From positions 1 through 64,000 of the forward strand of contig JAUCBJ010009018.1 of NCBI GenBank assembly GCA_032718475.1: a DNA stretch of 64,000 nucleotides, in the 5' to 3' direction. This document shows, piece after piece, positions 5,552 to 36,100 of this stretch. Numbering within the stretch: position 1 is the stretch's first letter; every line of letters starts with the position of its first letter. This DNA comes from Nemertoderma westbladi (Eukaryota > Animalia > Xenacoelomorpha). A program made the translations under genes and the position numbers. The notes beneath the pieces are model-generated. The model was given only the letters and a program-made list of their open reading frames with translations. It was not told the origin of the DNA and did no database searches.

Positions 5552-6785
5552 TGTTCGCGCTTTTGAAGACCTTTAGCAGTTTAACCTGCCAAAATTTATA
5601 TGTCTTTTAGTTAATTAACACACCTTTAGCATACGACAATATTTTATGCTAATAAACAAAACATTAGCCGAAGCCAGCCCATGCGCGATCATTCACCCGA
5701 TGGATCTACACCCGGGAGGCTGAATTCGGATGCTTAGATTTTATTATTGCAGTGTAAGGTTGCAGTGTAAACCTATTGTATTATTCGATAGATCACTAAT
5801 ATGTAATTTCTGACAGATATTATTAACTTTCGGGAAATATTAACAGTTCCTTTAGGACGTGGCGCTCTATCTATTTAAACAGAGCTAGGACTTATACTAA
5901 ACGCAACGATAAGGCTTATGATTAAAGTATAAGTCGCATTCTTTAGGAAATGCTTTGTTACCAGTCACATCACACTCACAATCATGCACACTATTCTGCC
6001 GACCGTCAGTATATTTGATCACACATAAAGAGAACAGCAATTGACTCAGGTAGTGTCTACTAAATAACATTAGATTCAATACACACCACATTGATATAAA
6101 TCGCAATTGTTATATATAGCCCGCCTCTCTAACCTGTAGTGTATCAAGAAAATTGGGAATTTTGGGTGATTTATCCGTATTCTCCAAAGAGCAATATTTC
6201 CATCAACAAATAGATACAATTAATAACTGACGGTAAATAGCAGTACAAACAATATGATTAGTGCAGTTAAATTAAGTGAGGTAACACCGCCGGTAACAGT
6301 TATACTTTCTATAATCTAAGCAGTTTTACTAGAGTTCTTCCCAAAAAGCCGGTGTTTCTGGCTTAGACAGCAATAACAACAAAGTATCAAGTAAGGCAGT
6401 AAGACTGAACACTCTCCTTATGATCGGCTGAAAAGCTACACGTCGACAGGAAAAATCGCTCTGATTGGCTCAAGCCAAACAAAGAACTATGCGTCCAATG
6501 GCTGTTTCCATGTCAGCAACCAGCTGTTAGATGTCGTAATATGAATCATCACGGCTAAGCTGTGAAAGGTAGTTGGTGCATTACAGGTTTTTTGCCTTAC
6601 CATGTCCGCCAAAACACGTATATAGCAGAATGACTTTTATGTCCGTTAAAACACCTGTAACGGTACCTTGCGGGCGAGGGGAATATATATACAGTTAGAG
6701 AACCTTTTTAGAGTATTCCAGCGCCTGGGGGGAAACTGGATTGCGAAGCAAAAGGGGCCAGTTATATCCCACAGAAGCTTTTACA
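5552..6785 (-). repeat. 3' LTR of element A
   Basis: Direct repeat of 16446-17679 (about 6 substitutions by eye). Preceded on minus by the purine tract GGGAGCGG (6786-6793), the same as in element B. Confidence 0.95.
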
Positions 6786-9939: not shown

Positions 9940-12900
9940 TCACGTTATGGAGTCCCTAGATATTTGTCGGATTAGGGAAGTAGTCGTAGGAAGAGTATCT
10001 TGCCTTCCATAGTTTCCGGACAGTTTTCGGTCTCTTTCCAGTAAACATAAACGACTAGCTGGGCGATTGAGTTGTTGTGGTACTTTCTCCGCTCCCTTGG
10101 CCTGTCTACTCTCTGCCGTGGTAAGATGAGGAGGCCATTCTTCTTCTTCTTTACTTAAGGAGTCGGATCCACCTAACCAGCCTGGAGTATCTATCAGTTC
10201 TTGAGGAGTTGCTCCTCTGGAAGCGATGTCGGCTGGATTAATCGTCCCAAGGCAATGTCTCCATTGATCTACATTGGAGTTAATATCGTCATTATCTGAG
10301 GAGTATGGTGTTCCCTCAGTTGGGTCGTCCACATCACTGCTCTCCACTTCCCCCTTTACTTGGTATACCTGTTGTTGAGGTAATCTCTCTTTGAGAGTTC
10401 TACGGGAAGGGCCAGTGAAGTACCAACCTACTCTAGTTCTTACCGCATAGGTTTGTAGTGGCTGTGGTTGAGCAGGCCGTTTCTCTAATGGCTCGAGCGC
10501 CTCATGCGCGTTTTGGCCGATGAGTATTTGCACTCCAGGATAATCGGTTTGGAATCGAGGTATCTCAAGATGTTGGATGCACTCGTCCTCGTCCCAGTTA
10601 TAAGGTTCTGCTTGAGTAGTAGCAAAGTTCTTTATAGCCACCATTTTTACTGACCTTATACCTTGTGTTCCTAACTTATCCTGGGGGGTGGACAACACAC
10701 CTACATAGTAATCTGCCGTTAGGGTAGATTTCCAAACCTGCATAATTCCTGACATATTCAATTTAGTCCGGAACTTGGGTTGTCCAGCAAAGATATCTTC
10801 GGCTAGTTCTTGATCGATGAATGTTCCTGTGCTGCCGGAGTCAAGTAGGGCGTTCACTATGTAACTCTTGTTGGGACCATGAACTCGAACTTGCACTACA
10901 GGAAATTCTCTTATTCCTATGTTGGAAGTTGGAACTTTCCAAGATGGTTGTTTGTCAAAAGGAGTTGGAGTAAACTCGTCAGTGTCCTTTTCATCCGTAA
11001 GTGCTCGATACACTGTGGTATTTATTAGATAACAGGACTCGCCGGCATCGGAGAATTCGTCTGTATAGAATCCCTCCCACCCAGAACCCCGGTCAGTGCC
11101 GTTCACATCACTGAACTGGACATGTAGTTCGGGCTCACTTACCTGACTCGGGTTGTCTCGTTCGAACTCACTGTGTAACAAGATGTGATGTTTCGCGTCA
11201 CACTTTGCACACTTTACGTCGGAGTAACAGGTTCGCCGTTGGTGTCCTGATCTGAGGCAATTATAGCATAACCGCTTATTCCACAGGACTGTACGTCTGT
11301 CTACAGGGGATTTCTTTAGAAATTCAGCACACGCACTCAAACGGTGGGGCCCGTCGCACAGCGCACATTTTGGTTTGATGTTACTCACCTTACCTTGGGT
11401 AACGTTATGCACTCTCGTTCTTTCTTCGGGCTTTCTTCCGTGAATTCTCTTAGGAGACGTAGGAGGAGTTGTTGTTACCTGTTCTCTCCTGTCACTGATT
11501 CGAGACTTGTATTTACTTACGTCTTTATAGGTCTTGTTGTCATAGTAAGATTTTGCTGTGTCTTTCCCGCTGTCCTCTTCTTGAGAAGCTTGGCTCTCGC
11601 CGTCGTCAGTGTAACACACTGGTATTATCCTTCTCCTAGAAACGGGTTTCTCACTTACCTTATTTTCCGATGTTTTCTCTCTGGCCTGCTTGATGAGTTG
11701 TAGTTTTACCTCACCATCTAAGAAGGACATGAGATCAGCCATGGTAGGACTTCGTCGTTGTTGTTCATTCATGTACAACACTTTCTTGTCCCAGCGTGTA
11801 CATACTCCACCCTTTGGTAAAGTAGAGACTACGGCTCCAATAACCATGGAACTCTGATATTCATGCAACTTACCTAACCAGTCCAGTTGTCTACAGATCT
11901 CTTGAATTTCATCGGAAAACTCTATAATCCCGCTACTAAGGAAGTGTCGGGGGGCTACTAATTTTGCATACAAATACTTAGCTATGTTATCTTTGTTACC
12001 ATACCTGATGTTTAATGTATCCCAAACTTGTCTTAATCCATCTGGATGTCCAATAAACTTTAACGCCATTAACTTGGGAGGTCCTTCCAAGCACTTGATG
12101 AGGAATCTAAGTTTTTCTCCGTTAGATAGTACAGAGTTCTGTATGCTATCTTTGTAATATTCGTTGAAAGGTAACCATTTCATCTCATCTCCATTGAATT
12201 TGACGATCTCTCCCACTTTGACCGCTTGGCGGGCTTCTGTTCTAGCCATCTGACGCGTAAAGCTTTCTTGGGCCATCGTGTTATTTAATATCGAATTATC
12301 GGTATATAAAGTTCTCGGATCATTATCAGGTCTATAGGGAATATCATTAATAACAGGTCTATAATCACCCTTAATAGGGTTTGCTATAGGAGTTTCAACT
12401 TCACTAGCAGTATAGATGCGTGTAGGCTCCACACCTTGCGCATGTAATACTTCAGACCTAACAGGTTGACACAATGTTACAGGGGGTATTGGTATGCCCT
12501 TTTGTATATTGACTAATTTGTCGCGTTCTAGCGCGATACTTTGCTGCACTTCTTGCAACTCTGCTCTACCTTCCCTCACTGTTCCCTTAAGTTGGTGGAC
12601 AGTCTCCTGCATCTGTCCCAGCAGGAGATTCATCCCCCGCCGTCCCTCTTCCACCCACTCAACCGCCGAAGCGGGAGTCGCCAACATTGTAGCGGGCTGA
12701 CGCGGGACGACGGGAGACAAATCTTTGATTCCTCTCTCAATGCTCAGGACAGGGGTGTTTGCATGGACTGTTCCACCGGGTACAGGCAGTGTAGTACTAT
12801 GTAAAGGGAATTTAGAGTTAAGCTCTGGAAGTACAGGGGTCTCTAACACAGAAGTGACTTTGGGAACGACAGGCCTAATTATTTCAGGCTCATCAACTAT

Positions 12901-14109
12901 TGTAGGGAGTCTTGTGACCTGAATAATTTGTTCTGTGGGTTCTGTATTACCTAAGTCTGTGCTAGCTAGTTGTCTTCTGACCGCTGGGGGCAAATCAGGC
13001 AGTTTATGACGGTGAGATGTTTTTCTACGCCTGCTTAGACGAGATCTATTTCCTCCGCCTTCAGGATCGGTGGTCTCGCCTTCCTCCGAGGATGTGTATC
13101 CCTGGCGCTTGGGAGTAGATCGACTCATCATCTGCATTTGATTAGCAGTAAACTGTTTATTTATACTGTCTTGCGTCTCTTGCAGATTTTCCAACTCCAG
13201 TTGGATAGTCTCATCAGAAGCTCTCCGTTCTGCTTCTGCCACTGCTGCTTTTCTTTCTGCTTCTGCTTCTGCCGCCGCTGCTTTTCTTTCGGCTTCTGTT
13301 TCTGCCGCCGCTGCTTTTCTTTCGGCTTCTGCTTCTGCCGCCGCTGCTGCTGCCACCTTTCTTTTCTCTATCCGTTCTTTCTTTACTTGTTCTTCTCGGA
13401 CTCTAATGAGGCGGAGTTTTTCATCACATTCAGCTTGGTTTGCAGCTAACATTTCCGCATCGATTGCGTCCAACACAAGCTTGGTTCCTTCACTATTAGG
13501 GCGAAGTCCAGACAGCCGTCTCCTCAACTCTTCGTCTCCTAGGAATCGCTGATAGTCGGACAAATAAATGTCGATAGCGTCTCTAGTTCGCGGCTTCTCT
13601 GCTGATGTTAATTCGCTTTCCACTTCGCTTTCCACCTCGCTTTCCACTTCGCTTTCCACCTCACTTTCCACTTCGCTTTCCACCTCACTTTCCACTTGAG
13701 AAGAAGTGGCGTCGGTTGATTCTTCATAGGTTGGCCGCTCATCATAAACCGTATCCGCCATCTTCGCTCCGCGTTCGGGCGTCCGCTCAACAGTATCCGA
13801 ACTACTGGAGCTATCGGGCCGCTGAGAACTAGGTTCTTGGCTAGGAGGTTGCTGCTGTTTTATAGCTTCTTCTTGATCCCGCTTGACTTGGGCCCGAGTG
13901 CCTATGGCAGACCAACGGCGCTTCACTAACTTCGCAAATTGCGAAATCTTTTCTACCAACCTAGGTTCTGACACAACCACTGCAGGAGTTGCCCTTCTTA
14001 CAGTATGAGGGGTTTCAGACCTCGGTCTGGGATTCTCTACACTTTGATCTGAGAAACAGGCTGTTGTTTCTAGGAGACTATCTGACAGAGTTTGCCTTGT
14101 GTCAGCCAT
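9940..14109 (-). CDS. gag: Gag-protease polyprotein of element A with short pol remnants (1389 aa)
   Basis: Open frame. CALCDGPHRLSAC, CYNCLRSGHQRRTC and CAKCDAKHHILLH are the BEL/Pao Gag knuckles; ALLDSGS is the aspartic protease. Ends with the NPADIASRG and RLCLLE pol remnants. Confidence 0.9.
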   Translation of the reverse strand: MADTRQTLSDSLLETTACFSDQSVENPRPRSETPHTVRRATPAVVVSEPRLVEKISQFAKLVKRRWSAIGTRAQVKRDQEEAIKQQQPPSQEPSSQRPDSSSSSDTVERTPERGAKMADTVYDERPTYEESTDATSSQVESEVESEVESEVESEVESEVESEVESELTSAEKPRTRDAIDIYLSDYQRFLGDEELRRRLSGLRPNSEGTKLVLDAIDAEMLAANQAECDEKLRLIRVREEQVKKERIEKRKVAAAAAAEAEAERKAAAAETEAERKAAAAEAEAERKAAVAEAERRASDETIQLELENLQETQDSINKQFTANQMQMMSRSTPKRQGYTSSEEGETTDPEGGGNRSRLSRRRKTSHRHKLPDLPPAVRRQLASTDLGNTEPTEQIIQVTRLPTIVDEPEIIRPVVPKVTSVLETPVLPELNSKFPLHSTTLPVPGGTVHANTPVLSIERGIKDLSPVVPRQPATMLATPASAVEWVEEGRRGMNLLLGQMQETVHQLKGTVREGRAELQEVQQSIALERDKLVNIQKGIPIPPVTLCQPVRSEVLHAQGVEPTRIYTASEVETPIANPIKGDYRPVINDIPYRPDNDPRTLYTDNSILNNTMAQESFTRQMARTEARQAVKVGEIVKFNGDEMKWLPFNEYYKDSIQNSVLSNGEKLRFLIKCLEGPPKLMALKFIGHPDGLRQVWDTLNIRYGNKDNIAKYLYAKLVAPRHFLSSGIIEFSDEIQEICRQLDWLGKLHEYQSSMVIGAVVSTLPKGGVCTRWDKKVLYMNEQQRRSPTMADLMSFLDGEVKLQLIKQAREKTSENKVSEKPVSRRRIIPVCYTDDGESQASQEEDSGKDTAKSYYDNKTYKDVSKYKSRISDRREQVTTTPPTSPKRIHGRKPEERTRVHNVTQGKVSNIKPKCALCDGPHRLSACAEFLKKSPVDRRTVLWNKRLCYNCLRSGHQRRTCYSDVKCAKCDAKHHILLHSEFERDNPSQVSEPELHVQFSDVNGTDRGSGWEGFYTDEFSDAGESCYLINTTVYRALTDEKDTDEFTPTPFDKQPSWKVPTSNIGIREFPVVQVRVHGPNKSYIVNALLDSGSTGTFIDQELAEDIFAGQPKFRTKLNMSGIMQVWKSTLTADYYVGVLSTPQDKLGTQGIRSVKMVAIKNFATTQAEPYNWDEDECIQHLEIPRFQTDYPGVQILIGQNAHEALEPLEKRPAQPQPLQTYAVRTRVGWYFTGPSRRTLKERLPQQQVYQVKGEVESSDVDDPTEGTPYSSDNDDINSNVDQWRHCLGTINPADIASRGATPQELIDTPGWLGGSDSLSKEEEEWPPHLTTAESRQAKGAEKVPQQLNRPASRLCLLERDRKLSGNYGRQDTLPTTTSLIRQISRDSIT

Positions 14110-15489
14110 GTTTGATTGTACAGTCGAATGCCTACTGCTATATTACAGTTAAAGCAAGTCTAGTAATTCAGTATCACTGTTAGCCTAATAATTAATTACC
14201 GATACTGCTACTCAGTGTAGCGTGATATATATATAATATATTAGAATACCGGTATGCTTATAATATATATATAAGTATTATTACAGACTAGATTTGTCAC
14301 AGAGTACCGGTATATAATTTTAGCACAAATATATATAAATATATAATAGGCCTATCGTGAATACCGGTATACAGCCTACACTTATAGTATATAAGTATAA
14401 TTCTGGACTATAATTAATTACAGAGTACCGGTATGATTTCAGCTCAAATTTATAGAAATAAATATAATAAGCCTATGGTAAATACCGGTATGTCAATTAT
14501 TTTAGAATAATTGAATTTCTGAATATTTTAGGGTTACTTGGTTACTTTAACTTACTTTATTACCGTTATTTAAGCAGCAGTCCAACTGATATTGAGACCT
14601 AGTTGTTGTATGGCAGGCCTACTATTTATAAATCGTTTGAGTTGATTTATAATAGATATATACCCGTTTAAATGGGTTTTTGTCAATATTTGAAATAAAT
14701 GTTATTATTTCTGGGGGAGTCACTACACAGAAGCTGAACGCCTCTCAGTGAAGTGCTATTTATTTGACACTAAAACTGATAATTCTAATTTACCTAAGTT
14801 ACTTAATACTACAAATTACTTACGATATGGGTGAGATTAATTCCCTAATTAAACACAACAAAATATTACGTACGAAATTTTTAGGGTAATTTTACAGGAA
14901 GTCTACAAACCAGTCCAACAAAGGGTTAGAATTCTGGTTATTACTGTATTACAACGGACAGGGTACTACGGTATTTGAAATAATAAGTAGTAGTAAATAT
15001 ATTGTACTGTCCAGATAGGAAAATACCACCGCCTGACGACCTATAACCGTATCGCTATAGGTACTACGTTATGTATCACGGATTGTTCCTACCCAGAAGC
15101 TAATAGAGCTAACGAATGTGCCTATCAACCACTTTACAACACAAATATACTGCCTACACTAATTACTTCGGAAAGCACTGTACACTAAACCCTAAATTAG
15201 GTACAAGTACCGGTATAACAAATAATCAGTAGTTAAATATACTTGAACAGTTAAAAGAACCACGGCATCTGCTGGAGTGACCGAAGCACAAAGTCGTCAG
15301 TCTTTACCTACGCCAAGCAGCCCTGATGTAGTACCGGGGTTAGTTTAACTATAACGGTATGTGTAACAAACACAATTACTGTAGGAATAAACTTGGGGAC
15401 ATGAATGTTGCGAATAATCGCATAAACTCTGAATAATAAATATTACGCTACCCGCACAGAACACTCAAACAAATACAAACCAAAACGCT

Positions 15490-16433: not shown

Positions 16434-16445
16434 TATAACTGTTAC
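16434..16445 (-). promoter_or_regulatory. Non-tRNA primer-binding-site position of element A (GTAACAGTTATA), complementary to LTR 17187-17198
   Basis: Lies immediately 3' of the 5' LTR on minus, has no TGG, and is a perfect 12-nt complement of an LTR-internal site. Confidence 0.75.
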
Positions 16446-17679
16446 TGTTCGCGCTTTTGAAGACCTTTAGCAGTTTAACCTGCCAAAATTTATATGTCTT
16501 TTAGTTAATTAACACACCTTTAGCATACGACAATATTTTATGCTAATACGCAAAACATTAGCCGAAGCCAGCCCATGCGCGATCATTCACCCGATGGATC
16601 TACACCCGGGAGGCTGAATTCGGATGCTTAGATTTTATTATTGCAGTGTAAGGTTGCAGTGTAAACCTATTGTATTATTCGCTAGATCATTAATATGTAA
16701 TTTCTGACAGATATTATTAACTTTCGGGAAATATTAACAGTTCCTTTAGGACGTGGCGCTCTATCTATTTAAACAGAGCTGGGACTTATACTAAACGCAA
16801 CGATAAGGCTTATGATTAAAGTATAAGTCGCATTCTTTAGGAAATGCTTTGTTACCAGTCACATCACACTCACAATCATGCACACTATTCTGCCGACTGT
16901 CAGTATATTTGATCACACATAAAGAGAACAGCAATTGACTCAGGTAGTGTCTACTAAATAACATTAGATTCAATACACACCACATTGATATAAATCGCAA
17001 TTGTTATATATAGCCCGCCTCTCTAACCTGTAGTGTATCAAGAAAATTGGGAATTTTGGGTGATTTATCCGTATTCTCCAAAGAGCAATATTTCCATCAA
17101 CAAATAGATACAATTAATAACTGACGGTAAATAGCAGTACAAACAATATGATTAGTGCAGTTAAATTAAGTGAGGTAACACCGCCGGTAACAGTTATACT
17201 TTCTATAATCTAAGCAGTTTTACTAGAGTTCTTCCCAAAAAGCCGGTGTTTCTGGCTTAGACAGCAATAACAACAAAGTATCAAGTAAGGCAGTAAGACT
17301 GAACACTCTCCTTATGATCGGCTGAAAAGCTACACGTCGACAGGAAAAATCGCTCTGATTGGCTCAAGCCAAACAAAGAACTATGCGTCCAATGGCTGTT
17401 TCCATGTCAGCAACCAGCTGTTAGATGTCGTAATATGAATCATCACGGCTAAGCTGTGAAAGGTAGTTGGTGCATTACAGGTTTTTTGCCTTACCATGTC
17501 CGCCAAAACACGTATATAGCAGAATGACTTTTATGTCCGTTAAAACACCTGTAACGGTACCTTGCGGGCGAGGGGAATATATATACAGTTAGAGAACCTT
17601 TTTAGAGTATTCCAGCGCCTGGGGGGAAACTGGATTGCGAAGCAAAAGGGGCCAGTTATATCCCACAGAAGCTTTTACA
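16446..17679 (-). repeat. 5' LTR of element A
   Basis: Direct repeat of 5552-6785 with TG...CA termini. Confidence 0.95.
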
Positions 17680-19380: not shown

Positions 19381-19629
19381 GATATGGACAGAACTAGACT
19401 TATGTGCCCTGTGCAGTTATGGAATTGAGATTGAGGAACATTTCCTACTTATACTGTATGTCCCGCTTTACAATAATCCCGAGAATCATATTAACAGAGC
19501 GCGTTCAGCCATTGATAATAATATTTTCAACCAATAATGCCTTCAACAACAATGCTGTAGATTGAATTGAAGATCCCGCTAAAAAGGTTGTACTTTTATT
19601 ACCAGTATTATTTAGCCAATCAAAGTAAA

Positions 19630-20038: not shown

Positions 20039-21214
20039 TGTAAAAGCTTTTGCGTCATTAACCGGTTATTTTCCCTTAAAGTACTCTGTAGTTGGTTTGC
20101 CAGGCATAAAAAGGCCATGTCCTTGCTTTACTGGTGTTTTAGAGGACATAAAAGTCATTTCTTCTGTATTTGTACTGTATTTGTACTTTAGAGGACATAA
20201 TCCGTAATCTCGTGACGCGATAAGCTAGATACTCTTGAAAACAGTGTCGCTACCATGACGACGGCTAACAGCTGATATTGCCACGTCGACGTTTCTTTGT
20301 TTCTTTGTTCTCTCGTTGTTCGGTTGACCAATCAGAGCGTTTTTTGTCTCTGTGTTGGAGGTGTATACAGAACTCAGTAGTTCAGTGTTTATGTTTTTGC
20401 TAGAGCCTAAGAACATCGGCCTTTGGCACCTACGTATATCAGCATTCTTTAGCTTTACATTAGTAGGCTTAATTATAGAACGTATATCTGTTATCGAAAC
20501 ATACTAACCACAAGTTAACTCATTCACTTAATAATCATTTATACATTAATATTACTGCTTTTACTGTCGGTTATTCATTATATTGGTTGATGAAATATTA
20601 TATCGGAATACTGATCAATAGTCAGACACCCCACCTTCTTGATATACTAAAGGTTAGAGAGACCGGTTACAGATAAACGATTGCGACCTATGTTGAGTGG
20701 TTTGAAGTGAATCTAATGCTATTTCATATGCCCAACATAAATTGTCTGTTGCTCTCTTTATACGTGACTAAATTTAGTGAAGGTCGGCAGATTAGTGTGC
20801 AGTATTGTGCAGCATTGTGTATGAGTGTAACTGATAACAAAGCATCTCCTAAAGAATGTGCCATATACGTTAATCTATAGCCTTTTCGTTGTGTCTAGTT
20901 TAAGTCATAACTCTGTTTACATATTTAGAGTGCCACGTCCTAAAGGAACTGTTAATATTTCCCGAAAGTGAATAATATTGGTCAGAGATTATATATTACG
21001 ATCAGTCGAATAATACGGTAGGCTTACACTATCAATCATTAAGCTCCGAACTCAGTCTCCCGGGTATATCCAACGGGTGAATGATTGCGCATAGACTGGC
21101 TTCGGCTAATGTAGTGTATCAAATACTCGTCATAAAGCTAAAGAATATATATCATCTAAAAGACATTCTAATTTTGGCAGGTTAAACTGTCAAAGGTCTT
21201 CAAAAGCGCAAACA
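20039..21214 (+). repeat. 5' LTR of element B
   Basis: TGTAAAAGC...GCAAACA. About 8 differences from the 3' LTR by eye. Confidence 0.95.
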
Positions 21215-21225
21215 ATAACAGATAT
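21215..21225 (+). promoter_or_regulatory. Non-tRNA primer-binding-site position of element B (ATAACAGATAT), complementary to LTR 20484-20494
   Basis: Abuts the LTR terminal CA, has no TGG, and is a perfect 11-nt complement of ATATCTGTTAT inside the 5' LTR. Confidence 0.75.
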
Positions 21226-21567
21226 TGCTTCTGGATTGCGGTGTAAGCAATCTAGTCGAAAGTACCGGTCGACCGGTAACCAGTAGGCCTGACTGCCTGA
21301 TCATCCGGACCGGTACTTACTTACAGTACAGGTACAGCAGTATTATTCGATTGTGGTATTGTATACCGGTAGGCTGTTTAAGAGATTAGGGACTGTACAC
21401 CCCTTGTTTCTTTTGGAGCTTATTTATTTCTGTCAGTTTTATTTATTTGTAGGCCAGTATTGAGCAGAAGGCGTGTAAGCCTGCTCAGATTGTACAGCTA
21501 ATTTGTAGGCTTGACTGTTGGCTAACTGTTGATTAGGTCTGAACGGATTGCAGTGCCTGTAGAGTGT

Positions 21568-22060: not shown

Positions 22061-23399
22061 TATTTATTATTCAGAGTTTATGCTATTATTCGCAACATTC
22101 ATATCCCCAAGTTTATTCCTACAGTAATTGTGTTTGTTATACATACCGTTATAGTTAAACTAACCCCGGTACTATACGGGCTGCTTGGCGTAGGTAAAGA
22201 CTGGTGATTTTGTGCACCGGTCACTCCAGCAGATACCGTGGTTCTTTTGGCTGTTCAAGTATTTTTAACTACTAATTATTTGTTATACAAGTACTTGTAC
22301 CTAATTTAGGGTTTAGTGTACAGTGCTTTCCGAAAGCAATTAGTGTGTAGGCAGTGTATTTGTGTTGTAAAGTGGTTAATAGGCACGTTGGTTCTGGTAG
22401 ACCGCGGTAATTAACTTCTAGGTAGGGACACTCCGTGATACATAACGTAGTACCTATAGCGATACGGTTATAGGTCGTCAGGCGGTGGTATTTTCCTATC
22501 TGGACAGCGCAGTATATTTACTACTACTTATTATTTTCAAATACCGTAGTAACCTGTCCGTTGTAATAACCAGATATTCTAACCCTTTGTTAGGCTGGTT
22601 AGTAGACTTCTTGTAAAATTACCCTAAAAATTTGTATTTGTGTATTTGTAATTAAATTTTTGTGTTTATTTAGAGATTGTAATCTCAACCCGAATTGTAC
22701 GTAATTTGTAGTATTAAGTAACTTAGGTAAATTAGAATTATTTGTTTTAGTGTCCAACAAGTAGCACTCCACTGAGAGCGCACAGCTTATGTGTAGTGAC
22801 TCCCCCAGAAATAATAACATTTATTTCAAACATTGACAAAACCCATTAAACGGGTATATATATATTATAAATCAACTCAAACGATTTATAAATAGTAGGC
22901 CTGCCATATAACAATTAGGTCTCAATATCAGTTGGACTACTGCTTGAATAACGGTAATAAAGTAAGTTAAAGTAACCAAGTAACCCTTAAAATTCAGAAA
23001 TTCAATTATTTAAAATAATTGATATACCGGTATTTACGATAGGCCTATTATATATTTATATACTTGTGCTGAAATCATACCGGTATTCTGTAATTAATTC
23101 TAGTCTGTAATTATACTTATATATATACATTATAAGTGTAAACTGCATACCGGTATCCACGATAGGCCTATTATATATTTATATATATTTGTGCTAAAAT
23201 TATATACCGGTTTCTGTGAAAAACCTAGTCTGTAATAATACTTATATATACCATAAGCATACCGGTATACTAATATATTATATATCACGCTACACTGAGT
23301 AGCAGTATCGGTAATTAATTACTAGGCTAGCAGTTAATACTGAATTACTAGACTTACTTAGACTGTAATAGCAGTAGACATTCAACTGTGTAAACAAAC

Positions 23400-26300
23400 A
23401 TGTCTGATACTAAGCAGAACCTGTCAGACAGTTTATTAGATGAAACTATCTGCGACTCAGATAAGGGTGTAGAACCGTCTAGTCCTAAATTCAGTTCACC
23501 TCCCACTGTGAGGAAAGTCATCCCTCCAGTAGTAATAACAGAACCTAGGTTGGTCCAACATCGTAGGTCTATCATAGGCACTCGAGCTCAGGTCAAGCGG
23601 GACCAAGAAGCAGCGGAACAGCAACAACCCGCGAGCCAAGAACTTATTTCTCAGCGGCCCGACAGCTCCAGTAGTGAAGATACTGTAGAACTGACACCCG
23701 AGCGCGGAGCAAAGATGACGGATGCGATTTATTCGGATCCCCTTCTCATCCTTCCTGCAGCCGTACTCACTAGGTTATTGATCGCGGTGGAAGAACACCA
23801 GATCGATTGGGCGAGAAGTAAGCGATCCACTAAAGATCGTTATGAGGGATACACAAGGGAAGAGCTGAAGTCTATGGTCGAGTCGCAATGGAACTTCCCC
23901 GGACCCGGACTCCCATTTGATTTATCAGAAGCTGCCTGGGAAGACATACACCGGATGGGAGTAGCCAAGGAAACCATCGATCCAGCTGTGTGGAAGAGGT
24001 CCGCAGCCGGATACGCACAGGGATTCTTCAGCTCTATGGAGCGAGTAGAAAAACAACTGTTTCAACAACCTCAAGGACCTCAAGAGCAGGGACAACTGCT
24101 TTATCAAGTTAGAGAAAGAATTCTGCGAATCAGGCTAATATTATCAGCCTTTGAAGAGGCTTCTAAAAGAAGACAAGACACGTCGTTGCAAGTTGCCGTA
24201 AAGACTTGGTTTCAACGGGTGAGTCGCCAGGTTCAAGGAACAGCTTAGTGGAAAGCTCAGCTGGAGGAGCGCTCAACCCATGGAGAATCAACGGACGCTA
24301 CTTTTTCCCAAGTGGAAAGTGAAGCGACGGCAGAGAAACCGCATAAGAGGGATGCCATTGACATCTATCTGTCAGACTATCAGCGTTTTTTGGGAGATGA
24401 AGAGTTGAGGAGAAGGCTAGATGGACTTAGCCCTAATAGTGAAGGAGCCCAGCATGTGTTGGATGCAATTGATGTGGATAGGTTAGCGGCGAACCAAGCT
24501 AAATTCGATGAACAACTCCGCATCGCTAGAGACCAAGAAGAACAAGTAAAGAAAAAACGTATAGAAGATAGAAAGACAGCGGCAGTGGCAGCAGCAGTGG
24601 CAGAGGCCGAAGCGGAAAGAAAAGCGGCAGCAGCAGTGGCAGCGGCAGAAGCTGAAAGAAAAGCGGCAGTGGCAGCAGCAGCGGCAGCGGCAGAAGCGGA
24701 AAGAAAAGCGGCAGTGGCAGTGGCAGTGGCAGAGGCCGAAGCGGAAAGGAAAGCGGCATCGGCAGTGGCAGAGGCCGAAGCGGAAAGAAAAGCGGCACTG
24801 GCAACAGCAGAGGCAGTGGCAGAAGCAGAACGGAGGGCATCTGAAGAGGCAACCCAACTAGAGTTGGAAAATCTTCAAGAGAGGCAAGACAACTTCAATA
24901 AACAGTTAACAGCTAGTAATATGCAGATGATGAGTCGATCTACTCCCAAAAGACAGGGGTATACATCATCTGAGGAAGGCGATACTACCGATCCTGAAGG
25001 CGGAGGAAATCGATCTCGCCTAAGCAGACGTAAAAGAATGTCCCACCGTCAAAAATTGCCTGATTTGCTTCCAGCTGTTAGAAGGCAACTAAATAACACC
25101 AACTTAGGTAGTACAGAACCCACAGACCAAATAATTACAATAGAGAGACTCCCTACTATAGTAGATGAGCCTGAAATAATTAGGTCTGTTCCCGAAGCCA
25201 CCCTTTCGGTCGTAGAGACACCTGTACTCCCTGAACCTACCTCTCAATTCCCTTTGCACAGCACTAAGCTACCTGTGCCCAGCAGAACAGCCCATGAGAC
25301 AGTTCATGCCCTGGACTCCGAGCGAAATATTCATGATTTGTCGCCCGTTGTCCCTCGTCCGCCCGCTACAACGTTGGTGAATCCCGCTTCGGCGGTTGAA
25401 TGGGTGGATGAGAGACGACGGGGGATGGATCTCCTGCTCGGACAGATGCAGGAGACCGTTCAGCAATTCAAGGGCACAGTAAGGGAAAGTAGGCTAGAGT
25501 TGCAAGAGGTGCAGCAAAGTATCGCGCTAGAACGCGATAAATTAGTAAATGCACAAAAGGGTATACCACCACCCCCTGTAACTATAGGGTAATTATAGAC
25601 CTGTTGATAATGATATTCCCTATAGACCGGATCATAATCCGAGAAATTTATATACCGATAACTCGATATTAAATAACACGATGGCCCAAGAAAGTTTTAC
25701 GCGTCAAATGGCTAGAACCGAAGCCCGGCAAGCGGTAAAGGTGGGAGAGATCGTCAAGTTCAATGGAGATGAGATGAAATGGTTACCTTTTAATGAATAT
25801 TACAAAGATAACATACAGAACTCCGTGCTATCTAATGGAGAGAAACTTAGATTCCTCATCGAGTGCTTGGAAGGATCTCCCAAGTTAATGGCGTTAAAGT
25901 TTATTGGACATCCAGACGGATTAAGATAAGTTTGGGATACACTAAACATCAGGTATGGTAATAGGAATAACATAGCTGGGTATTTGTATGCAAAGTTGGT
26001 AGCGCCCCGAAAGTTTATTAGCAGCGGAATTATAGAGTTTTCCGATGAGATTCAGGAGATCTGCAGACAATTAGATTGGCTAGGTAAGTCTCATGAGTAT
26101 CAGAATGCTATGGTTATTAGAGCAGTGGCTTCTACTTTACCGAAGGGTGGAGTAGGTACACGCTGGGATAAGAAAGTGCTATATATGATGGAACAACAAC
26201 GACGAGACCCTACCATGGCTGATCTCATGTCATTCCTAGATGGAGAAGTGAAATTACAGCTCCTGAAACTGTCCAGAGAGAAGACACCGGAAAACAAGGT

Positions 26301-27751
26301 AAGTGAAAAACCCGTCGCTAGGAGAAAGGTAACCCCAGTGTGTTATACAGATGATGGCGAAAGCCAGACTTCTCAAGGAGAAGATAGCGGGAAAGACACT
26401 GATAGATCTTATTACGTAAATAAAATGCCTAAAGATCAGGTAAGTAAATTCAAGTCTCGAACAAATGACAGGAGAGAACAGGTAAGAAAAACTCCTCCTA
26501 CGTCTCCCAAGAGAATTCAGGTGAGAAAGCCCGAAGAAAAAACAAGTGTACACAATGTTACACAGAGTAAGGTAAGTAACATCAAACCGAAATGTGTGCT
26601 ATGTGATGGGACCCATCGCTTAAATATGTGTGATGAATTTCTAAAGAAATCATTAACTGAGAGACGTGAAGTCATGTGGGACAAGCGGTTGTGCTATAAT
26701 TGCCTCAGACAAGGACACCAACGGCGAACCTGTTACTCTGACACAAGATGTGCCAAGTGCGGTGCGAAACATCATATCTTGTTGCACACTGAATTCGAGC
26801 GAAATAGTCTGAGTCAGGTAAGTGATTCCGAACTACATGTCCAATTCAGTGATGTGAACGACACTGATCAATCTGAGATGGAAGGATTCTATACGGACGA
26901 GTTCTCCGACGAAAACGAATCCTGTTACATGATAAATACCACAGTGTATCGAGCACTCATCTATGAAAAAGATACAGACATTGACCTCGCTCTAACCACT
27001 TCTGATCGACAACCATTTTGGAAAGCGCCAACTTCCAATGTAGGGATTAGAGAATTTCCTGTGGTACAGGTAAGGGTCCACGGACCGAAAAGGAGTTATG
27101 TAGTGAACGCCCTCCTTGACTCCGGTAGTACAGGAACATTCATCGACAAAGAGCTAGCCAAAGACATATTCGCTGGACAACCCAAGTTCCGAACTAAGCT
27201 AAACATGTCAGGAATTATGCAAGTTTGGAAATCCACAGTAACCGCGGATTATTATGTAGGTGCGTTGTCCACCCCCCAGGACGAACTAGGAGAACATAGC
27301 ATAAGGTCAGTGAAAATTGTGGCTATAAAGAACTTCGCTACTACTCAAGCAGACCTTTATAATTGGGACGAGGATGAGAGCATCCAACATCTTAAGATAC
27401 CTCGATTCCAGACAGATTATCCTGGAGTGCAAATACTCATCGGTCAAATGCGCATGAAGCGATCGAGACGTTAGAGAAACGACCTGCTCAACCGCAACCT
27501 CTACAAGTTTATGCGGGAAGAACTAGAGTAGGTTGGTACTTTACTGGCCCTTCCCGTAGAACTCTAATGGAAAGATTACGGTACCTAAAGAGCAGGTATA
27601 CCAAGCGCGAGAATGGGAAGTTGAGAACAGTGAGTTCGACGATCCAACTGAGGGAACTCCATACTCCTCAGACAACGACGATATACATCAACTTTTTGAT
27701 GAGAAGAATGCCATCGATCTCCTTAAGGAAAGCGAGACTTGGCAAAATCAA
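23400..27751 (+). pseudogene. gag: Disrupted gag-protease region of element B
   Basis: Collinear with the ORF of element A. Lesions: stops at 24246-24248 and 25927-25929, a frameshifting deletion near 25585, a 1-bp loss near 27448 and a 5-bp insertion at 27579-27583. Knuckles and ALLDSGS are present. Confidence 0.9.
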
Positions 27752-30700
27752 GTGAACTTATGTCAACTCCTTCTCCCATCTGAGCGAGACGACTATAACG
27801 ACGAGCTTAATGACGTCATTGAACGTTATAATGCCAAGACTCGGGATGAACACGCCGTGAGATTCTTTACTCAAGAGGTCGTAGATCCCAACTCCTACGA
27901 TAAGGCCCTATCGGTGGAGGAAGAAAGAGCCAAGCAGATCCAAGCGATAACTACTCGTTTTCTTAAAGATCAAGGTAGGTATGAGATCGGACTTCCTTTC
28001 CGAAAGCGAGAACCAAAGTTCATTAACAACAGACCTTTGGCTGAGAAAAGAATTGCTCAACTACATCGACGCCTTACGGCAAATTCTTCAGCTAAAGAAA
28101 TGTATAAAACACAGTTGAAGAAGTTTATTAGCAAGGGATATGCGGAGCTAGTACCGGAAGAAACACCCATAACTGAGAGAACGTATTATTTAACTCACCA
28201 TTACGTTCCCAAACCCGGTAAACCCCATGAAGTACGAGTGGTGTTCGACGGCTCCGCCCTCTATATGGGCCAATCCCTTAATTCTGAATTGTTACCCGGA
28301 CCCAACTTACTCCAATCCTTGTTGGGAATATTATTAAGGTTAAGACAATACTCCATTGCTTTCGCCTCAGATATAGAAGGCATGTTCTTACAAGTCAAAG
28401 CGCTGGATAGGGATCGAGATAGCCTACGATTTTTGTGGTGGCCTGAAGGAGACCTCAATAAGAAACCGGTGGAGTACTGGATGACCATCCAAGCTTTTGG
28501 GATAATCTCGAGCCCTTCAAACGCCTGTTCCGTGGTGCGCACCACTGCGGATGACAACCGAGACGCCTTCTCTAAAGAAGTGATCGACAATATCAAACGA
28601 GACATCTACATGGACGATAATCTGAAGTCCCTTCCATCAGTCGAAGAAGCCATTGAGGTCGCTAAAGGAACGGTAGAATGCTTAAAGAAGGGTGGATTTC
28701 GATTAACTAAATTCACCAGCAACTCCCGTGAGTTTCTGGAGTCGATCCCGGTAGAAGATCGAGGAACAAAAGACCTAGATCTAATAAAGGATGATCTCCC
28801 AGAAACTAAGACCCTTGGTTTGAAATGGGACACAGAAATAGATATCCTGTTTTTCCAACTAAAACAGCGAGATAATCCAGTTCGGACTAAACGGATTTGT
28901 TTAAGTATCCTGAGCACTTATTTCGATCCATTGGGATTTATTAGCCCAGTTATATTAATTGCTCGGAGTTTAGTACAACAAATGTGGCTTGAAAACCACT
29001 CATGGGACGATCCACTTAAGGGAGAATTATTAAAGAAGTGGATGAAATGGGAAGATTCTCTACCAGCCATCGAAAACTTCATAATTTCCCGTTCATATTT
29101 TGGTCATGTTCTCCCTACGTATTCATATCAACTCCATGTGTTTGGAGACGCCAGCGATATGGGAATCGGTATAGTAGCCTACCTCAGGGTGGAAACTCCG
29201 GACGGAATTAAAGTCGCCTTGGTTACCTCTAAGGCATTAATAAACAACAAGTTGAAAGTTCCTCGAGCGGAGTTAAAAGCGGCTCTATACGCTACAGCCA
29301 TCAGCCGGAATGTAACAGAACAGATCGACTATCCCCTGGAGAAAATTGTCTATTGGACCGACGCTTTACTCGTGTTGGAGTATATAACCAATGAAGTCTG
29401 TCAGTTCAGCGTCTTCATTACCAACAGAGTAGCTATTATACTCAGTCGCACGACGATGGATCAATGGAGACATTGCCCCGGAACGATTAATCCAGCGGAC
29501 ATCGCTTCCAGGGGAGCAACTCCACAAGAACTGGTAGATACTCCAGACTGGTTAGGTGGACCCGACTTCCTCTACAAAGAAGAAGAAGAATGGCCTCCTC
29601 ATCTTACTACAGCAGAAATTAGACAGGCCAAGGGAGCGGAGAAAGTCAAACCTAAAACTCAGGCGAGTAAATCGAAGTTATTCAAACCCACAGTAGATCT
29701 GTCTGTACTACATACTTCCGGAGACGACGCTTTGGATCAGAAACCCACAGCCACAAATAAACTCGTTGTGGAAATCCGTGATAAGGATTGGAAATCTGGC
29801 ATACCAGACGTCTCGCAAGGACTCTCACCCCTTCTGCAGAGAGCGATACATCACTACAGTTCTTGGAATCGGCTTTGTAAGGCCGTTACATATTTAAAGA
29901 GATGTTTTCACCATCACTACTCTGGGATGAAAACAAAGGGTGATACCGCTCCAATCACATCAGTGCAGGTCCATGTTATTAAAGACCTCCCTAAATATAA
30001 GGTACCCGACAAGTTTCTGAAGGAGAAGATCAGTTATCAGGAGCATGAAGAAACCAACAAACAGTTGCTGAGACTCTTACAATGCTATGAAGATTCCGAT
30101 AAGTATTTCCTGTTGTTGAGAAATCCACAGATGCGCTTAAGGGATCGTTTCTCTAGCACAATGATAGATGGGTTGATACGTGTTGGAGGAAGGTTAACGA
30201 ATGCCCCATTATCCTTTGATACTAAGTTCCCCATACTCATTAGAAATCTTGAAATACAAGTCAAGATGATTGTAGATGTTCACAGCAAACTTTATCATGC
30301 TGGTAGAGAACGAGTTCTTAGCGAAATTCGAACTCGCTATTATTTTTATAAACCCCGTAGAGCTCTGAACCAAGTTCTTAGGAACTGTATACCCTGTAGG
30401 AAAGCATTCAGTAGGCCTTTAACACAGAGAGAGGCAGAATTACCTAGGGAACGAGTAAGCTTTTATGAACCACCCTTTACTAATACCGGCGTGGATTTAT
30501 TTGGCCCTATTGAAGTATATCGTGCTAGGACTATAGTCAAGAGATGGTGTGTAATCTTTGTTTGTATGACTTGTAGAGCCATCCATCTCGATATGGTGAA
30601 CGATTTATCTACCAACAGCTTTCTATTAAGCTTACGACGACAGATCGCTCGCTTTGGCACTAGTAACACGATGAGATCTGATAAGGGAACAAACTTCATT

Positions 30701-31492
30701 GGTGCCAACAATGAAATCAAAGCTTACGTCAAAGATTGGAACCAAAGACAGGTGGACGACCAACTACGAGTAACAGCGTCTAGTTGGACCTTCAACGCCG
30801 CCGACGCCCCTTGGTGGGGAGGAAGTTGGGAAAGATTAATAAGAAGCGTGAAGACAGCATTTCATTTTATAGTGCCTTGCCGCGCTTATCTCACCGACGA
30901 ACTTTTGCGGACGTTAATGGAAGAAATCGCCGCCTATCTCAACGAGAGACCGCTTATGCCAGTCTCATCGAGTCCCGATTCCCTGGAAGCGCTAACACCC
31001 GCGCACTTCCTACTGAAGAAACCTGTAGCCATGCTCCCACAATCGGAAATCACAGACGGAGACGAATACTGCCGACAAACTTGGCAACTCATGCAGTTGT
31101 TATCCCGTCGTTTCGCTGACCATTTCGAAAAACATTATCTGCCCACGCTACAACTTCGAACTAAGTGGTTTGCGCAGCAAGAAAACGTCAGCGCTGGAGA
31201 CATGGTGCTTATTGTGGATGTGGATCTTCCACATAAGCGGTGGCAGACAGGTCGTATAATCGAGACGCATATCTCGGATGACGGTTTGGTGCGATCGGTA
31301 GAACTCGTCGTCATGCGACGTAACTTCAAGAAACCGGGAATTGTCTTCGAGACGCAGCAGCTCAATCGCCCGGTGGGACGTTTATGTTTACTGGAAAGAG
31401 ACAGAGAACTCTCCGGAAACTATGGGAGACAAGATACTCTTCCCACGACCACCTCCCTAATCCAACAAACATCTAGGGACTCCCCAACTTAA
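27752..31492 (+). CDS. pol: Pol: reverse transcriptase, RNase H and integrase (open frame, normally the C-terminal part of Gag-Pol)
   Basis: RT: RVVFDGS, SDIEGMF, YMDD. RNase H: FGDAS, PRAELKA, WTD, NPADIASRG. Integrase: H-x4-H...CIPC, GVDLFGP, SDKGTNF, GGSWERL (DDE). Confidence 0.95.
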   Translation: MNLCQLLLPSERDDYNDELNDVIERYNAKTRDEHAVRFFTQEVVDPNSYDKALSVEEERAKQIQAITTRFLKDQGRYEIGLPFRKREPKFINNRPLAEKRIAQLHRRLTANSSAKEMYKTQLKKFISKGYAELVPEETPITERTYYLTHHYVPKPGKPHEVRVVFDGSALYMGQSLNSELLPGPNLLQSLLGILLRLRQYSIAFASDIEGMFLQVKALDRDRDSLRFLWWPEGDLNKKPVEYWMTIQAFGIISSPSNACSVVRTTADDNRDAFSKEVIDNIKRDIYMDDNLKSLPSVEEAIEVAKGTVECLKKGGFRLTKFTSNSREFLESIPVEDRGTKDLDLIKDDLPETKTLGLKWDTEIDILFFQLKQRDNPVRTKRICLSILSTYFDPLGFISPVILIARSLVQQMWLENHSWDDPLKGELLKKWMKWEDSLPAIENFIISRSYFGHVLPTYSYQLHVFGDASDMGIGIVAYLRVETPDGIKVALVTSKALINNKLKVPRAELKAALYATAISRNVTEQIDYPLEKIVYWTDALLVLEYITNEVCQFSVFITNRVAIILSRTTMDQWRHCPGTINPADIASRGATPQELVDTPDWLGGPDFLYKEEEEWPPHLTTAEIRQAKGAEKVKPKTQASKSKLFKPTVDLSVLHTSGDDALDQKPTATNKLVVEIRDKDWKSGIPDVSQGLSPLLQRAIHHYSSWNRLCKAVTYLKRCFHHHYSGMKTKGDTAPITSVQVHVIKDLPKYKVPDKFLKEKISYQEHEETNKQLLRLLQCYEDSDKYFLLLRNPQMRLRDRFSSTMIDGLIRVGGRLTNAPLSFDTKFPILIRNLEIQVKMIVDVHSKLYHAGRERVLSEIRTRYYFYKPRRALNQVLRNCIPCRKAFSRPLTQREAELPRERVSFYEPPFTNTGVDLFGPIEVYRARTIVKRWCVIFVCMTCRAIHLDMVNDLSTNSFLLSLRRQIARFGTSNTMRSDKGTNFIGANNEIKAYVKDWNQRQVDDQLRVTASSWTFNAADAPWWGGSWERLIRSVKTAFHFIVPCRAYLTDELLRTLMEEIAAYLNERPLMPVSSSPDSLEALTPAHFLLKKPVAMLPQSEITDGDEYCRQTWQLMQLLSRRFADHFEKHYLPTLQLRTKWFAQQENVSAGDMVLIVDVDLPHKRWQTGRIIETHISDDGLVRSVELVVMRRNFKKPGIVFETQQLNRPVGRLCLLERDRELSGNYGRQDTLPTTTSLIQQTSRDSPT

Positions 31493-32320: not shown

Positions 32321-33137
32321 TGTCTATTTAACATTAAATAATCAAATTTACGGGAATAAATTTAAATTCATATATTTCAATGAATTAATAAATTGTCATT
32401 TTATACAATTTATAACATTCCCAAAATTCCATTAATTAATAGATCATGGGAGCGGAGATTCACTCTATTAAGTGTATTTGTGTGCGAGAATCTCCAATGT
32501 ATAGTCAATAGCCGATAAAATTCATAAAATCATGTATAAAGGGGATATTGACCATTAAAGAATTACTATTAAATAGCATCCCAGATCTGTATGCATGAGA
32601 ATTACCCTAATTCTACCGCTAGCTTTCCATAATGTCACCATGGCAACAACCACGCTAGAATTAGAAGTGAGTTAAAAGAACAATAGAAAGCATGCCCCAT
32701 TGAATAGCATAGGGAATAAATAGCGCACTGCTAGTACCCAAGGATACATAATAAATACAGTGACATTCTGGAAGGTACTGACTAACGGACAAATGGCCCG
32801 AATGTGTGCAGTTTGTTGCAGTTGTGTTGAATTTGTGCGTTTGTAGGTGAATGTTACTACTAAGGTGTGTTTACAGTAGCGAGTCGCAATTGTGAAAGTA
32901 ACCCTAACTCTCCAAGAAGAACCTGCAGTACATCTAAGCCTTTGGGACGGACAGTGAAGTGACTTGTGCCGGTTATCGTTGTCGTTGTGTAGCTACATCG
33001 TTGGCGAAAGCACAGCGACGACGGTACATCGGCGCTGAGGATCTTACACTGTCCGGGGGCAAAAGAGGGGTAGGCAGCGACGCCTGCTAGCCTAATATAT
33101 ATAAACTCATTATAATATTGATAAACTCATAGCAGAT

Positions 33138-36100
33138 ATGACTGAGTTGATAGAAGATGATCTTGGTATCAGGGAGCGATATACTCTACCTTTACAAGCA
33201 TTTGTCGATAGCTTGATACGCGGCGACGCTGGTCCAACTACTACGGAGGATGATGGTCGTTATATCGAACCGCCGATGTCCCCGGAGCAACTTACGCGTG
33301 AATTGGACTATAGAAAGTTCACCGCTCGCTATACGCATCGTAATGGTACGTATATGGACTTCTTAACTACCGGCCACCCTATCGATTTACACGATACGGA
33401 CGATGTGGATACCGAAAGGGAAATGGTTTTATTTAAATATCACACCCAACGGAATCGGAACGATAAGCCAAGAATAGAACACGAGAACTCTATTCGAAAC
33501 AGACTCGAAAGAGAAGACGTTGAAGAGCCGGATAAACGCAACGACTTCAACGATTATCTGGAATTCTTGAGAGAAACATACCTCAATATTGCCAGTCAAC
33601 AAAATCTCGAAACTCGATATCCTCAAGGTATACATCATGATCCTATGATAGAACTCAAGCGACTCTATTTCACTATGATGTATCTTACCGCCGATCGACC
33701 GCTACCTGTTGTCCCAGATAGCTTCGAACAGATGGAGGAATATTGTAAAACTGGAGAACGATCACCCGCGTTTCCTCTGCAGGACATGCGTCTTTGGTAT
33801 TACTGTGACGAATGCCCTAGACCCAATCAGCAAACGGAAAGACATAAACATCCGCGGAGACATTGCGCTAAACACAGTTTTACACGATATACTTACGGGA
33901 GTTTCGAGCGAAACCTGTTCGACGTGTCCCCTGCGGTCGCTCGACTCAAGCGATCCTTGAACAAACCGATGATCAGAGTTCCGGAATACTCGGTCAGACC
34001 TCCGCATTCCTCAGTTAGACCTCAAACTCTTGACCCTAATAGTATCACGGATCCTCCCGAACTGTACTCACTGTTCAAAGATCTAGTGTTACCCGAACAG
34101 TTGATCGGTGGCACTCCGGTAGTAGGCTCACGAGACATTCGCCAACCCTACCTAGCTGGATTGGGACGTGGTCATCTAATATCGCCGTTTAACCCATACA
34201 ACCGTCCCGGCTTCACCTCTATCCAACCCGCTACGGAAGTCGAAGAGAGCGTCGTACGAAACGCATTAGACGCTATTCGGCAGAAAATCGGAAAGGGAAC
34301 GTACGATTGTTTGGAGAAGCGTAAATTGCAGCAACAAGTCCAAGCGGTGAAGGAATTAGCTTTACCCCAGTTCGATAGAGAAATACAAAATCTCGAGGAG
34401 GACATCGAACGTGGACGAACCTACTCTTTACAAGAGTTTCTAGATGAGCGTCTACAACAACAAGCGGAGGAGAATCAGCTCGAGGAGAGACATATAGAAC
34501 TGGATGAGAGAGAAGAAGCGGCTTTAGCTCAACCCGAAGCGCAAATCCTTATGACGGATCTCTACTCTAAAACCATTCTTCATCCCTCGATGGTTCCCCA
34601 TTTCGGAGACAAACTTTTTGCGACGGCACAACCCCAACCGGTTGATATCAACCTAAGATCTCGCGATCTTATCGCCGACGCTCCTCTGTTGCAGCGTCCG
34701 CCCATCGAACCCGCTCGTGTCGATGGTATACTCGTTGAACCTCCGGACAATAGAGCAGATCTTGTCCGTCGCATGGTACACGATGTAAACATACGCGCTA
34801 GACCTTTACCGGACTCGTTTTATGGGATCAAAGATCACCCTTATTACGTCAATCTAAAACAATATTACATGGTAAAACCGAAAGATCCTACACATAGTCT
34901 GAAGTTTCTACCGTTAATAAATCCTCTCGATCTTGTCGAACTCGAACAACTGCAGAAACATCTGGATCAGTTAGTTAAAGTAAACTCGTTTCGAAAACCA
35001 TATAATGTTTCCAGAATAGAGAAAGAAACAATACCTCCGTATAATCTTGATGGATTCATCAAAACTCGTTTAGTGCACTGGAATCTTGATGTGTTATTCG
35101 AGGAGGAAAGAATACAACGATATGGAGATGTGGAAACATATACCACACAATGTTTAAAGTATAAAGACCTGCCTAATGCTAGCGAATGTGCTACCTTGTG
35201 GCATCCTGTGGGAATGACACTCGAAAACGCCACTAAAGAGTGGAACGAAACTCTTAACGTTATCGAGATGTATGGAGTTGTCACTTACGATAACGAAGGT
35301 AGCGTTCCGGTTGGAGAACTTGGAACTACGCGGATGATACACATACGAGGACTCGCTGGTTCTACCCACGTATTTACTCGAGCGTGTTCCGACGTTATTG
35401 ATTATTCTTTTGAAACTCTTACTGAGATACAAAAGAAACTCCGACATGGACAATTTGAACTCGCGCAGCGTTACGTCACCGACACCGAGCGCAAGCCGGC
35501 TATGGGTATCGATGGATCGATGTTACCCCAACCCGTGCTCGAGATGCTGTTTAACGAAGGAATCCTTAAAATCGGCTCAGCTGTTTATGGAGACCTACAG
35601 AACGACTTTCGGAATATGGAGAACATTCCATACCCCTTCGTTGATACTCAGCTGATTGCTCCTTGGGCAGAAGGCCGAGGTTTCTTCCGCACTACGTATG
35701 CCAATACACCCAGCGGAATTACCAAAGTACAACGAACCTCCATCGGACATCTTGCCTTTCAAGAATACGGATGGAATTTCAAGGTTGGAAATCCTATAAA
35801 TTACCAACAAGTATACGGAGATCATTATTCTCGTTTATACTTTGATGGACCATTGACCGCACCTGGCGCCGTGTATAGCTTTATGAGTGTTCCACTTCGT
35901 CCCTCCTTAGCTATATACACGATCTTTGAAAACGCAGCACTTGCCGGTTGGCTAGCCGATGTGTGCAGTCGTACCATACGCGCCCATCCCTTAGTACTTG
36001 GAACCAAACTCGCCAAGTTAGATGAACACAATAAATTCATCCGCTTTGAATGTTTCAAGCGCTTTCTGACTCCGTTCCGTAACGTTGATAGTCAGTTCAA

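Follow-up and report, generated by a model that had tools for sequence, protein, structure and literature searches.

A candidate self-priming signature in two BEL/Pao LTR elements

Two LTR elements and their surroundings

The 64-kb window, which is the whole stretch of DNA analyzed, was found to contain two related LTR elements, A and B, lying back to back. Element B spans 18.6 kb of the plus strand (20039-38644) and is flanked by the 5-bp target duplication GGAGT. Its 5' LTR (20039..21214, 1176 bp, TG...CA) and 3' LTR (37470..38644) show 8 differences, and a purine-rich tract lies directly upstream of the latter. Element A runs along the minus strand from 17679 to 5552, with a 1234-bp 5' LTR at 16446..17679, a 3' LTR at 5552..6785, 6 differences between the two, and a target duplication of CAATC. 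The features by which BEL/Pao LTRs are recognized, namely TG...CA termini, a target-site duplication, and a polypurine tract, were found in these elements. A 21-bp near-palindromic minisatellite occupies 19592-19889, between A and B.

The assignment to BEL/Pao, made previously in the first-pass annotation, was borne out by the encoded proteins. The pol region of B (27560..31492, +) is open for 1310 aa and was identified from Pfam and homologues as RT, RNase H, and integrase of the BEL/Pao type. Along this frame, Pfam matches were obtained in the order PF05380 (1e-36), PF18701 (2.2e-19), and PF17921 (4.8e-07), corresponding to the Pao peptidase, DUF5641, and the integrase zinc-binding domain, with the integrase downstream of RT/RNase H. 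Among the matches listed, the nearest database relatives of B pol were BEL/Pao polyproteins at 40-44% identity, and the gag of A matched PF03564 (DUF1759). On the basis of their proteins, both elements are assigned to BEL/Pao. Membership of the Tf1/sushi group was ruled out by the BEL/Pao Pfam domains together with the absence of a chromodomain match.

Upstream of pol, the gag-protease region of B (23394..27474, +) is broken into three frames (23394-24248, 24249-25592, and 25930-27474). Element A retains a gag-protease ORF of 1400 aa (9940..14142, -), has lost the greater part of both pol and the extra ORF described below, and is a deletion derivative. The likeness between A and B is uneven, the LTRs being about 74% identical where aligned and internal stretches reaching 97% (7938-10077 versus 31355-33512); this suggests mosaic exchange.

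After pol, B carries an extra ORF of 1428 aa (33105..37391, +). Residues ~700 to 965 were found to resemble 3'-5' exonucleases in a feature search (score 0.92, with 24 of 30 matches in PF01612 clusters) and in a two-sequence alignment, and CCHC knuckles follow this region. No Pfam match was obtained at E 0.001, a PDB sequence search returned 0 matches, and a search with the best relative of the ORF returned only that relative itself. The structure models were of low confidence (pLDDT 32 and 36) and too poor for a structure search. Two distant relatives (P0121 and P0122) have a similar layout. The ORF likely carries a 3'-5' exonuclease-like domain.

A degraded third LTR-like copy with gag-like fragments and a piece of the family leader (53512-53712) was observed at 51300-54700 (-). 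The same region holds a piece 96% identical to positions 42625-42871 of a C2H2 zinc-finger gene (41553-43049, -), possibly the result of gene capture. The window also contains a protein-kinase exon (62241-62693, -) and two related non-LTR RT fragments (2645-3277, +, and 55165-56100, -).

Complementarity between the PBS position and the LTR

Among the LTR groups of animals, BEL/Pao is a major one. Its members are described in the ICTV profile as tRNA primed, as the first-pass annotation had stated, with a 4.2-10 kb genome and an 18-nt PBS that pairs with tRNA-Arg or tRNA-Gly; the replication cycle is termed poorly understood there and is taken to be primed by host tRNA (PMC8742986). Elements A and B resemble Belpaoviridae (Semotivirus) in the Pao peptidase, DUF1759, DUF5641, an integrase after RT, LTRs near 1.2 kb, a 5-bp duplication, and an extra ORF at the position of env. 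They differ from the profile in the length of B and in the PBS. The 18-nt complement of a tRNA-Arg or tRNA-Gly 3' end was not found in either element, TGG being absent from the first 17 bases after the 5' LTR in both, which agrees with the earlier statement that a tRNA-type PBS is missing.

The 11 nt abutting the 5' LTR of B, ATAACAGATAT (21215..21225, +), were instead found to be the exact complement of ATATCTGTTAT at 20484..20494 (+), LTR position 446. Likewise, the 12 nt abutting the 5' LTR of A, GTAACAGTTATA (16434..16445, -), are the exact complement of TATAACTGTTAC at 17187..17198 (-), LTR position 482. Each complement occurs once within its LTR, and the pairing ends exactly at the terminal CA (offset 0 in both elements). 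The two LTR sites are homologous; they differ at 2 of 11 aligned positions, and each difference is mirrored in the PBS position. Apart from the single occurrence within each LTR, these observations had been made in the first-pass annotation and were reproduced here, as was a single mismatch in the 3' LTR of B. The site there (37915-37925) reads ATATCTGTTAA, in which the base facing PBS position 1 is A instead of T, so that the terminal pair is lost and 10 pairs remain at offset 1. The 3' LTR of A retains all 12 pairs (6304-6293). The covariation within the A/B lineage amounts to two elements and two positions, one of them broken in the 3' LTR of B.

Perfect complements in the B LTR were found for 88 of 180,379 random 11-mers from the window, and in the A LTR for 26 of 180,272 random 12-mers. 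Shuffled PBS sequences did not reach the observed match length in any of 200 trials for A or in any of 200 for B. The cognate duplexes had energies of -13.0 and -10.5 kcal/mol, and the cross-pairs were weaker, at -7.8 and -5.8 kcal/mol. It was concluded that the complementarity is real and well beyond chance. Such pairing is absent from the third, degraded LTR copy (near 51300-52100), which may be a 3' or solo LTR. Contigs from four sequencing runs indicated a high-copy and diverse family, as judged from the best-supported differences (at least 224 more were present). Among the matches listed, these contigs followed the sequence up to 20495 and diverged after it. A joint between 20489 and 21181 did not appear among the differences listed, which speaks neither for nor against splicing there.

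Self-priming has been described for Tf1/sushi elements, and Tcn1 and the TAR lineage of copia are predicted to use it, according to the available portions of PMC6317226, 10.1101/2022.12.06.519325, and PMC4600332. In the Tf1 case, the primer is formed by the first 11 bases, RNase H cleaves between bases 11 and 12 (accessible part of PMC7175516), and priming takes place inside a three-duplex pretzel (accessible part of 10.1101/2022.12.06.519325). Like A and B, the Tf1/sushi elements (Ty3/gypsy chromoviruses, including Tf1 and Tf2 of Schizosaccharomyces pombe and Tj1) lack a tRNA site, have ~11 nt after the 5' LTR that complement the LTR, and have structured RNA flanking the PBS. They differ in that the RT of A and B is of the BEL/Pao type. 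Furthermore, the loop in A and B is 720-741 nt and the primer may be internal, whereas the Tf1 primer begins the transcript, and the flanking stems found in A and B are local hairpins rather than the duplexes of the pretzel. In the plant and fungal elements TAR (Houba, Osr-1) and Tcn1, self-priming was deduced where a complement of 10 bp or more begins 0-5 bp past the 5' LTR (available portion of PMC6317226). Both A and B have such a complement to their own LTR, 11 nt long in B and 12 nt in A, at offset 0. The TAR and Tcn1 elements belong to other superfamilies and hosts, and splice-built primers are not described in the part of that source available. As in Tf1, the primer of A and B is probably the element's own RNA.

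The terms primer, PBS, and tRNA are absent from the main text of the BEL/Pao survey PMC3118150, and BEL/Pao self-priming is absent from the accessible portions of PMC5445492, PMC3601003, PMC8220671, PMC5443660, PMC5006619, and PMC5408684. No report of BEL/Pao self-priming, or of splice-built primers, was found in the literature searched, most subscription papers and the Repbase notes lying outside the search.

Survey of BEL/Pao relatives

The pol alignment consisted of the query and 26 of the 120 listed homologues and yielded 80 metagenome loci and 19 genome-bin loci. A direct repeat around pol was detected in 39 of these 99 loci; 26 were tested and 13 were left out. The latter were L069 and L070, which repeat the L067 family, and loci whose LTR end could not be fixed (L031, L032, L033, L052, L058, L062, L068, L075, L081, L085, and L086). 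No tRNA genes were found in the window or in the 39 loci scanned.

A self-complementary site of 10-15 nt at the PBS position was found in 22 of the 26 testable loci, 19 of them across a GT-AG splice junction in the LTR and 3 contiguously. These 22 loci represent about 15 lineages, several being near-identical copies. The matches were mostly 10-12 nt long, similar to the 11-nt primer of Tf1 (accessible part of PMC7175516), and the pairing ended 0-3 nt from the LTR end. Where the LTR ends were known from both sides (15 loci), 10 sites were of the junction type (10-15 nt, 0/200 shuffles each) and 2 were contiguous (10-11 nt, 0/200 and 1/200 shuffles); among the rest, one locus reached 8 nt, one gave nothing, and one had TGG. 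The LTR end of L050 was uncertain. For the 11 loci in which only the LTR start was known, every ACA was tried as the LTR end, which gave 9 junction sites (10-11 nt), 1 contiguous site (13 nt), and 1 locus with nothing, with at most 1/30 shuffles matching each.

The junction-type loci were L002, L004, L015, L017, L022, L029, L030, L036, L039, L040, L059, L064, L065, L067, L074, L082, L083, L088, and L092, and the acceptor was frequently followed by a poly(A)-like signal in the loci inspected. No self-complementary site was found in L037, and none was detected in the scan of L097, whose LTR end reads CT. In L087, the complement was only 8 nt, a length reached by 7/200 shuffles. The sole TGG-type PBS among the 26 tested relatives was that of L061, located 5 nt after the LTR (LTR end at 55) and presumably resembling the complement of a tRNA-Tyr 3' end.

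A tree was built from 23 rows, without references for the named BEL/Pao clades (Pao, BEL, Sinbad, Suzu, Tas, Dan, and Flow); L087, L092, and L097 were too short, L038 and L088 were left out, and the junction labels of ten loci were set by eye. Since B formed a long branch (1.95) outside all of the relatives tested, these are only distant kin of A and B. They display a general habit of the group and are not close kin of the two elements. The contiguous L057, with a 177-bp LTR, was sister to the junction-type L022 (support 100/99), which suggests a switch between the two forms, possibly by intron loss. The exact LTR-end pattern was found in 0 stretches of the metagenome contigs, and no relative was found among the viral contigs. 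The loci L081-L099 are BEL/Pao elements with LTRs in contigs labeled as bacterial genome bins; these contigs are most likely animal host DNA.

Proposed priming and competing interpretations

The position of the RNA start bears on how a primer could arise. The CCAATCAGAGCG box (20328..20339, +; identical in A from 17362), a candidate promoter element, and the initiator-like motif TCAGT (20382..20386, +; kept in A at 17302-17298) are conserved between A and B within an otherwise poorly conserved region. Together, they suggest a start near 20384 in B and 17300 in A, from which the distance to the primer 3' end would be 111 nt and 114 nt, respectively. Of 15 relatives scanned, 3 had a TATA box 217-242 nt before the junction, 5 had TCAGT 88-112 nt before it, and 6 had neither a TATA nor an initiator-like motif. 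As cautioned in the original proposal, a TATA-like TATAGAA (20474..20480, +; kept in A at 17207) lies only 10 nt upstream of the site, a distance too short for it to be the TATA box of a start at 20484. If it is a TATA box, the usual TATA-to-start spacing would place the start at about 20499-20505, downstream of the site, which would rule out priming by the 5' LTR copy.

The first-pass annotation had further taken the primer to be the first 11 nt of a transcript starting at 20484. Folding of B favors this start, while the conserved motifs suggest one ~110 nt upstream. The mean probability of the B helix was 0.94-0.95 for RNA beginning at 20484 and 0.00-0.05 for RNA from three upstream starts. 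For A, the helix probability was 0.78-0.99 in six of eight windows, 0.02-0.13 in the other two, and 0.03-0.05 in two further windows. As the global folding depends on the chosen ends, it was not taken as proof. A Tf1-style primer formed by the first 11 nt of the A and B transcripts is considered doubtful, and an RNA start upstream of the segment, making the primer internal, is somewhat favored over one that coincides with the segment.

Compensated RNA stems are retained in three copies of the LTR downstream of the site. The comparison of A, B, and the degraded third copy revealed a common stem-loop with compensatory pairs at approximately 21044..21106 (+). A hairpin in U5 (21172..21195, +) has a stem of G-C, G-U, or A-U pairs across the three copies and overlaps the acceptor-like sequence TTTTGGCAG/GTTA. 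Folding also placed a hairpin directly 3' of the PBS (21231..21255, +), whose counterpart in A shares an ATTGC/GCAAT core. Local hairpins flank the PBS in both A and B; a shared long-range flanking duplex was not found, and Rfam gave no match over the LTRs.

We propose that A and B prime minus-strand synthesis from their own RNA, through an LTR segment of 11-12 nt, and not from a tRNA, a reading that we consider fairly probable; self-priming in some form, with all models taken together, is judged highly probable. This assessment follows from the exact complement, the matched changes, the chance rates, and the self-complementary sites of the relatives. The earlier claim that this BEL/Pao lineage self-primes is likely and is supported by the geometry, the matched changes, the chance rates, and the 22 of 26 relatives. 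The RNA would begin before the segment is reached, the surroundings of the TCAGT ~110 nt upstream being the likeliest place. The segment would then fold back onto the PBS, closing a loop that measures 720 nt in B and 741 nt in A, with two conserved hairpins flanking the PBS. Cleavage at the 3' edge of the duplex, analogous to that by RNase H in Tf1, would free a 3'-OH opposite the terminal CA of the LTR. RT would copy U5 from this end and then jump to the 3' LTR. Finally, the PBS would be rewritten when the primer is copied into plus strand, and because of this the PBS and the LTR site would stay matched without selection on each change. As B is broken and RT is missing from A, an intact relative would have had to serve both.

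The pairing is contiguous in A and B, and in most of the distant relatives it is present only after removal of an LTR intron. A broader picture is put forward tentatively, with slightly less than even confidence: self-priming may be usual across a large part of aquatic BEL/Pao, with an internal LTR primer assembled mostly by host splicing of an LTR intron, and A and B may represent a splicing-independent form, possibly with its own 3'-5' exonuclease finishing the primer end. If true, self-priming of A and B would add an independent origin of tRNA-free priming to those of Tf1/sushi and of the plant copia elements for which it is predicted. Reverse transcription would be tied to host RNA processing by an internal primer and, in the relatives, by one made through splicing. 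Such elements would presumably stand outside control by tRNA supply or tRNA fragments, and annotation that expects a tRNA PBS would misjudge them.

Alternatively, the helix could be structural or regulatory, occluding the PBS or aiding packaging, with a host RNA such as a tRNA fragment as the true primer. The LTR is rich in conserved structure, and the core CTGTTA shared by the sites presumably resembles the tRNA-Asn anticodon loop. Half-tRNA primers are also known in some copia lineages (available portion of PMC6317226). However, a single RNA cannot pair perfectly with both PBS variants. The PBS sequences of about a dozen relative lineages are unrelated, each matched by its own LTR, and the pairing stops 0-3 nt from the LTR end, as required of a primer terminus. 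A host RNA primer was rated unlikely.

A primer made by splicing in A and B themselves was also weighed, given the junction-built sites of 19 of 26 testable relatives. An intron at 20490-21180 would join ATATCT to GTTA, giving 10 pairs in B or 11 in A at offset 1, with a loop of ~30 nt. The acceptor-like TTTTGGCAG/GTTA stands 34 nt from the LTR end in both elements (ending at 21180 in B), and the third copy reads TTAGCAG/GTTA; the mismatch in the 3' LTR of B would also be irrelevant to a primer of this kind. The would-be donor (GTTATC, GTTAAC, or GTTACC), however, lacks G at +5 in the three full copies read, whereas the donors of all 19 relatives carry it, the test having demanded a consensus-like donor; the sole putative host donor read in the window is CAG/GTCAGT. 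When a consensus donor was required, the best match in A and B was contiguous, and a junction match was obtained only via the weak GTTA donor. In addition, splicing does not account for the pair at offset 0, which is G-C in A and A-U in B; the acceptor-like sequence doubles as the stem of the compensated hairpin in three LTR copies; and U3 is less well conserved than the would-be intron. A splice-made primer in A and B was deemed improbable and ranked below the contiguous model.

The internal segment might instead act through its 3' LTR copy. That copy would pair with the PBS and circularize the genome, and a 3'-5' exonuclease, possibly the extra ORF product, would trim the tail to the duplex without an endonucleolytic cut. 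If the RNA starts upstream of the site, its 3' end would carry a second copy, and the extra ORF resembles the required enzymes. DEDDy ORF3s, likewise exonuclease-like ORFs after pol, are known in the bdelloid rotifer LTR elements Juno and Vesta, which belong to other LTR clades (accessible part of PMC5408684); the exonuclease domain of B is a tentative lead. Against this, the 3' LTR copy of the site in B is mismatched at its terminal base, several relatives with self-complementary sites have no space for such an ORF, and trimming might have to remove ~700 nt. The exonuclease call itself came from the feature search and the two-sequence alignment, Pfam, the PDB sequence search, and both folds having given nothing usable. 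We regard priming by exonucleolytic trimming as quite improbable. Finally, chance complementarity, for which the short and AT-rich sites could be cited, was excluded by the k-mer rates (given per element alone, before homologous position and matched changes are required), the shuffles, and the homologous position with matched changes.

In the leader of A (16270-16460, -), the LTR end together with the PBS was found to be partially repeated twice more in tandem, from 16367 and 16304.
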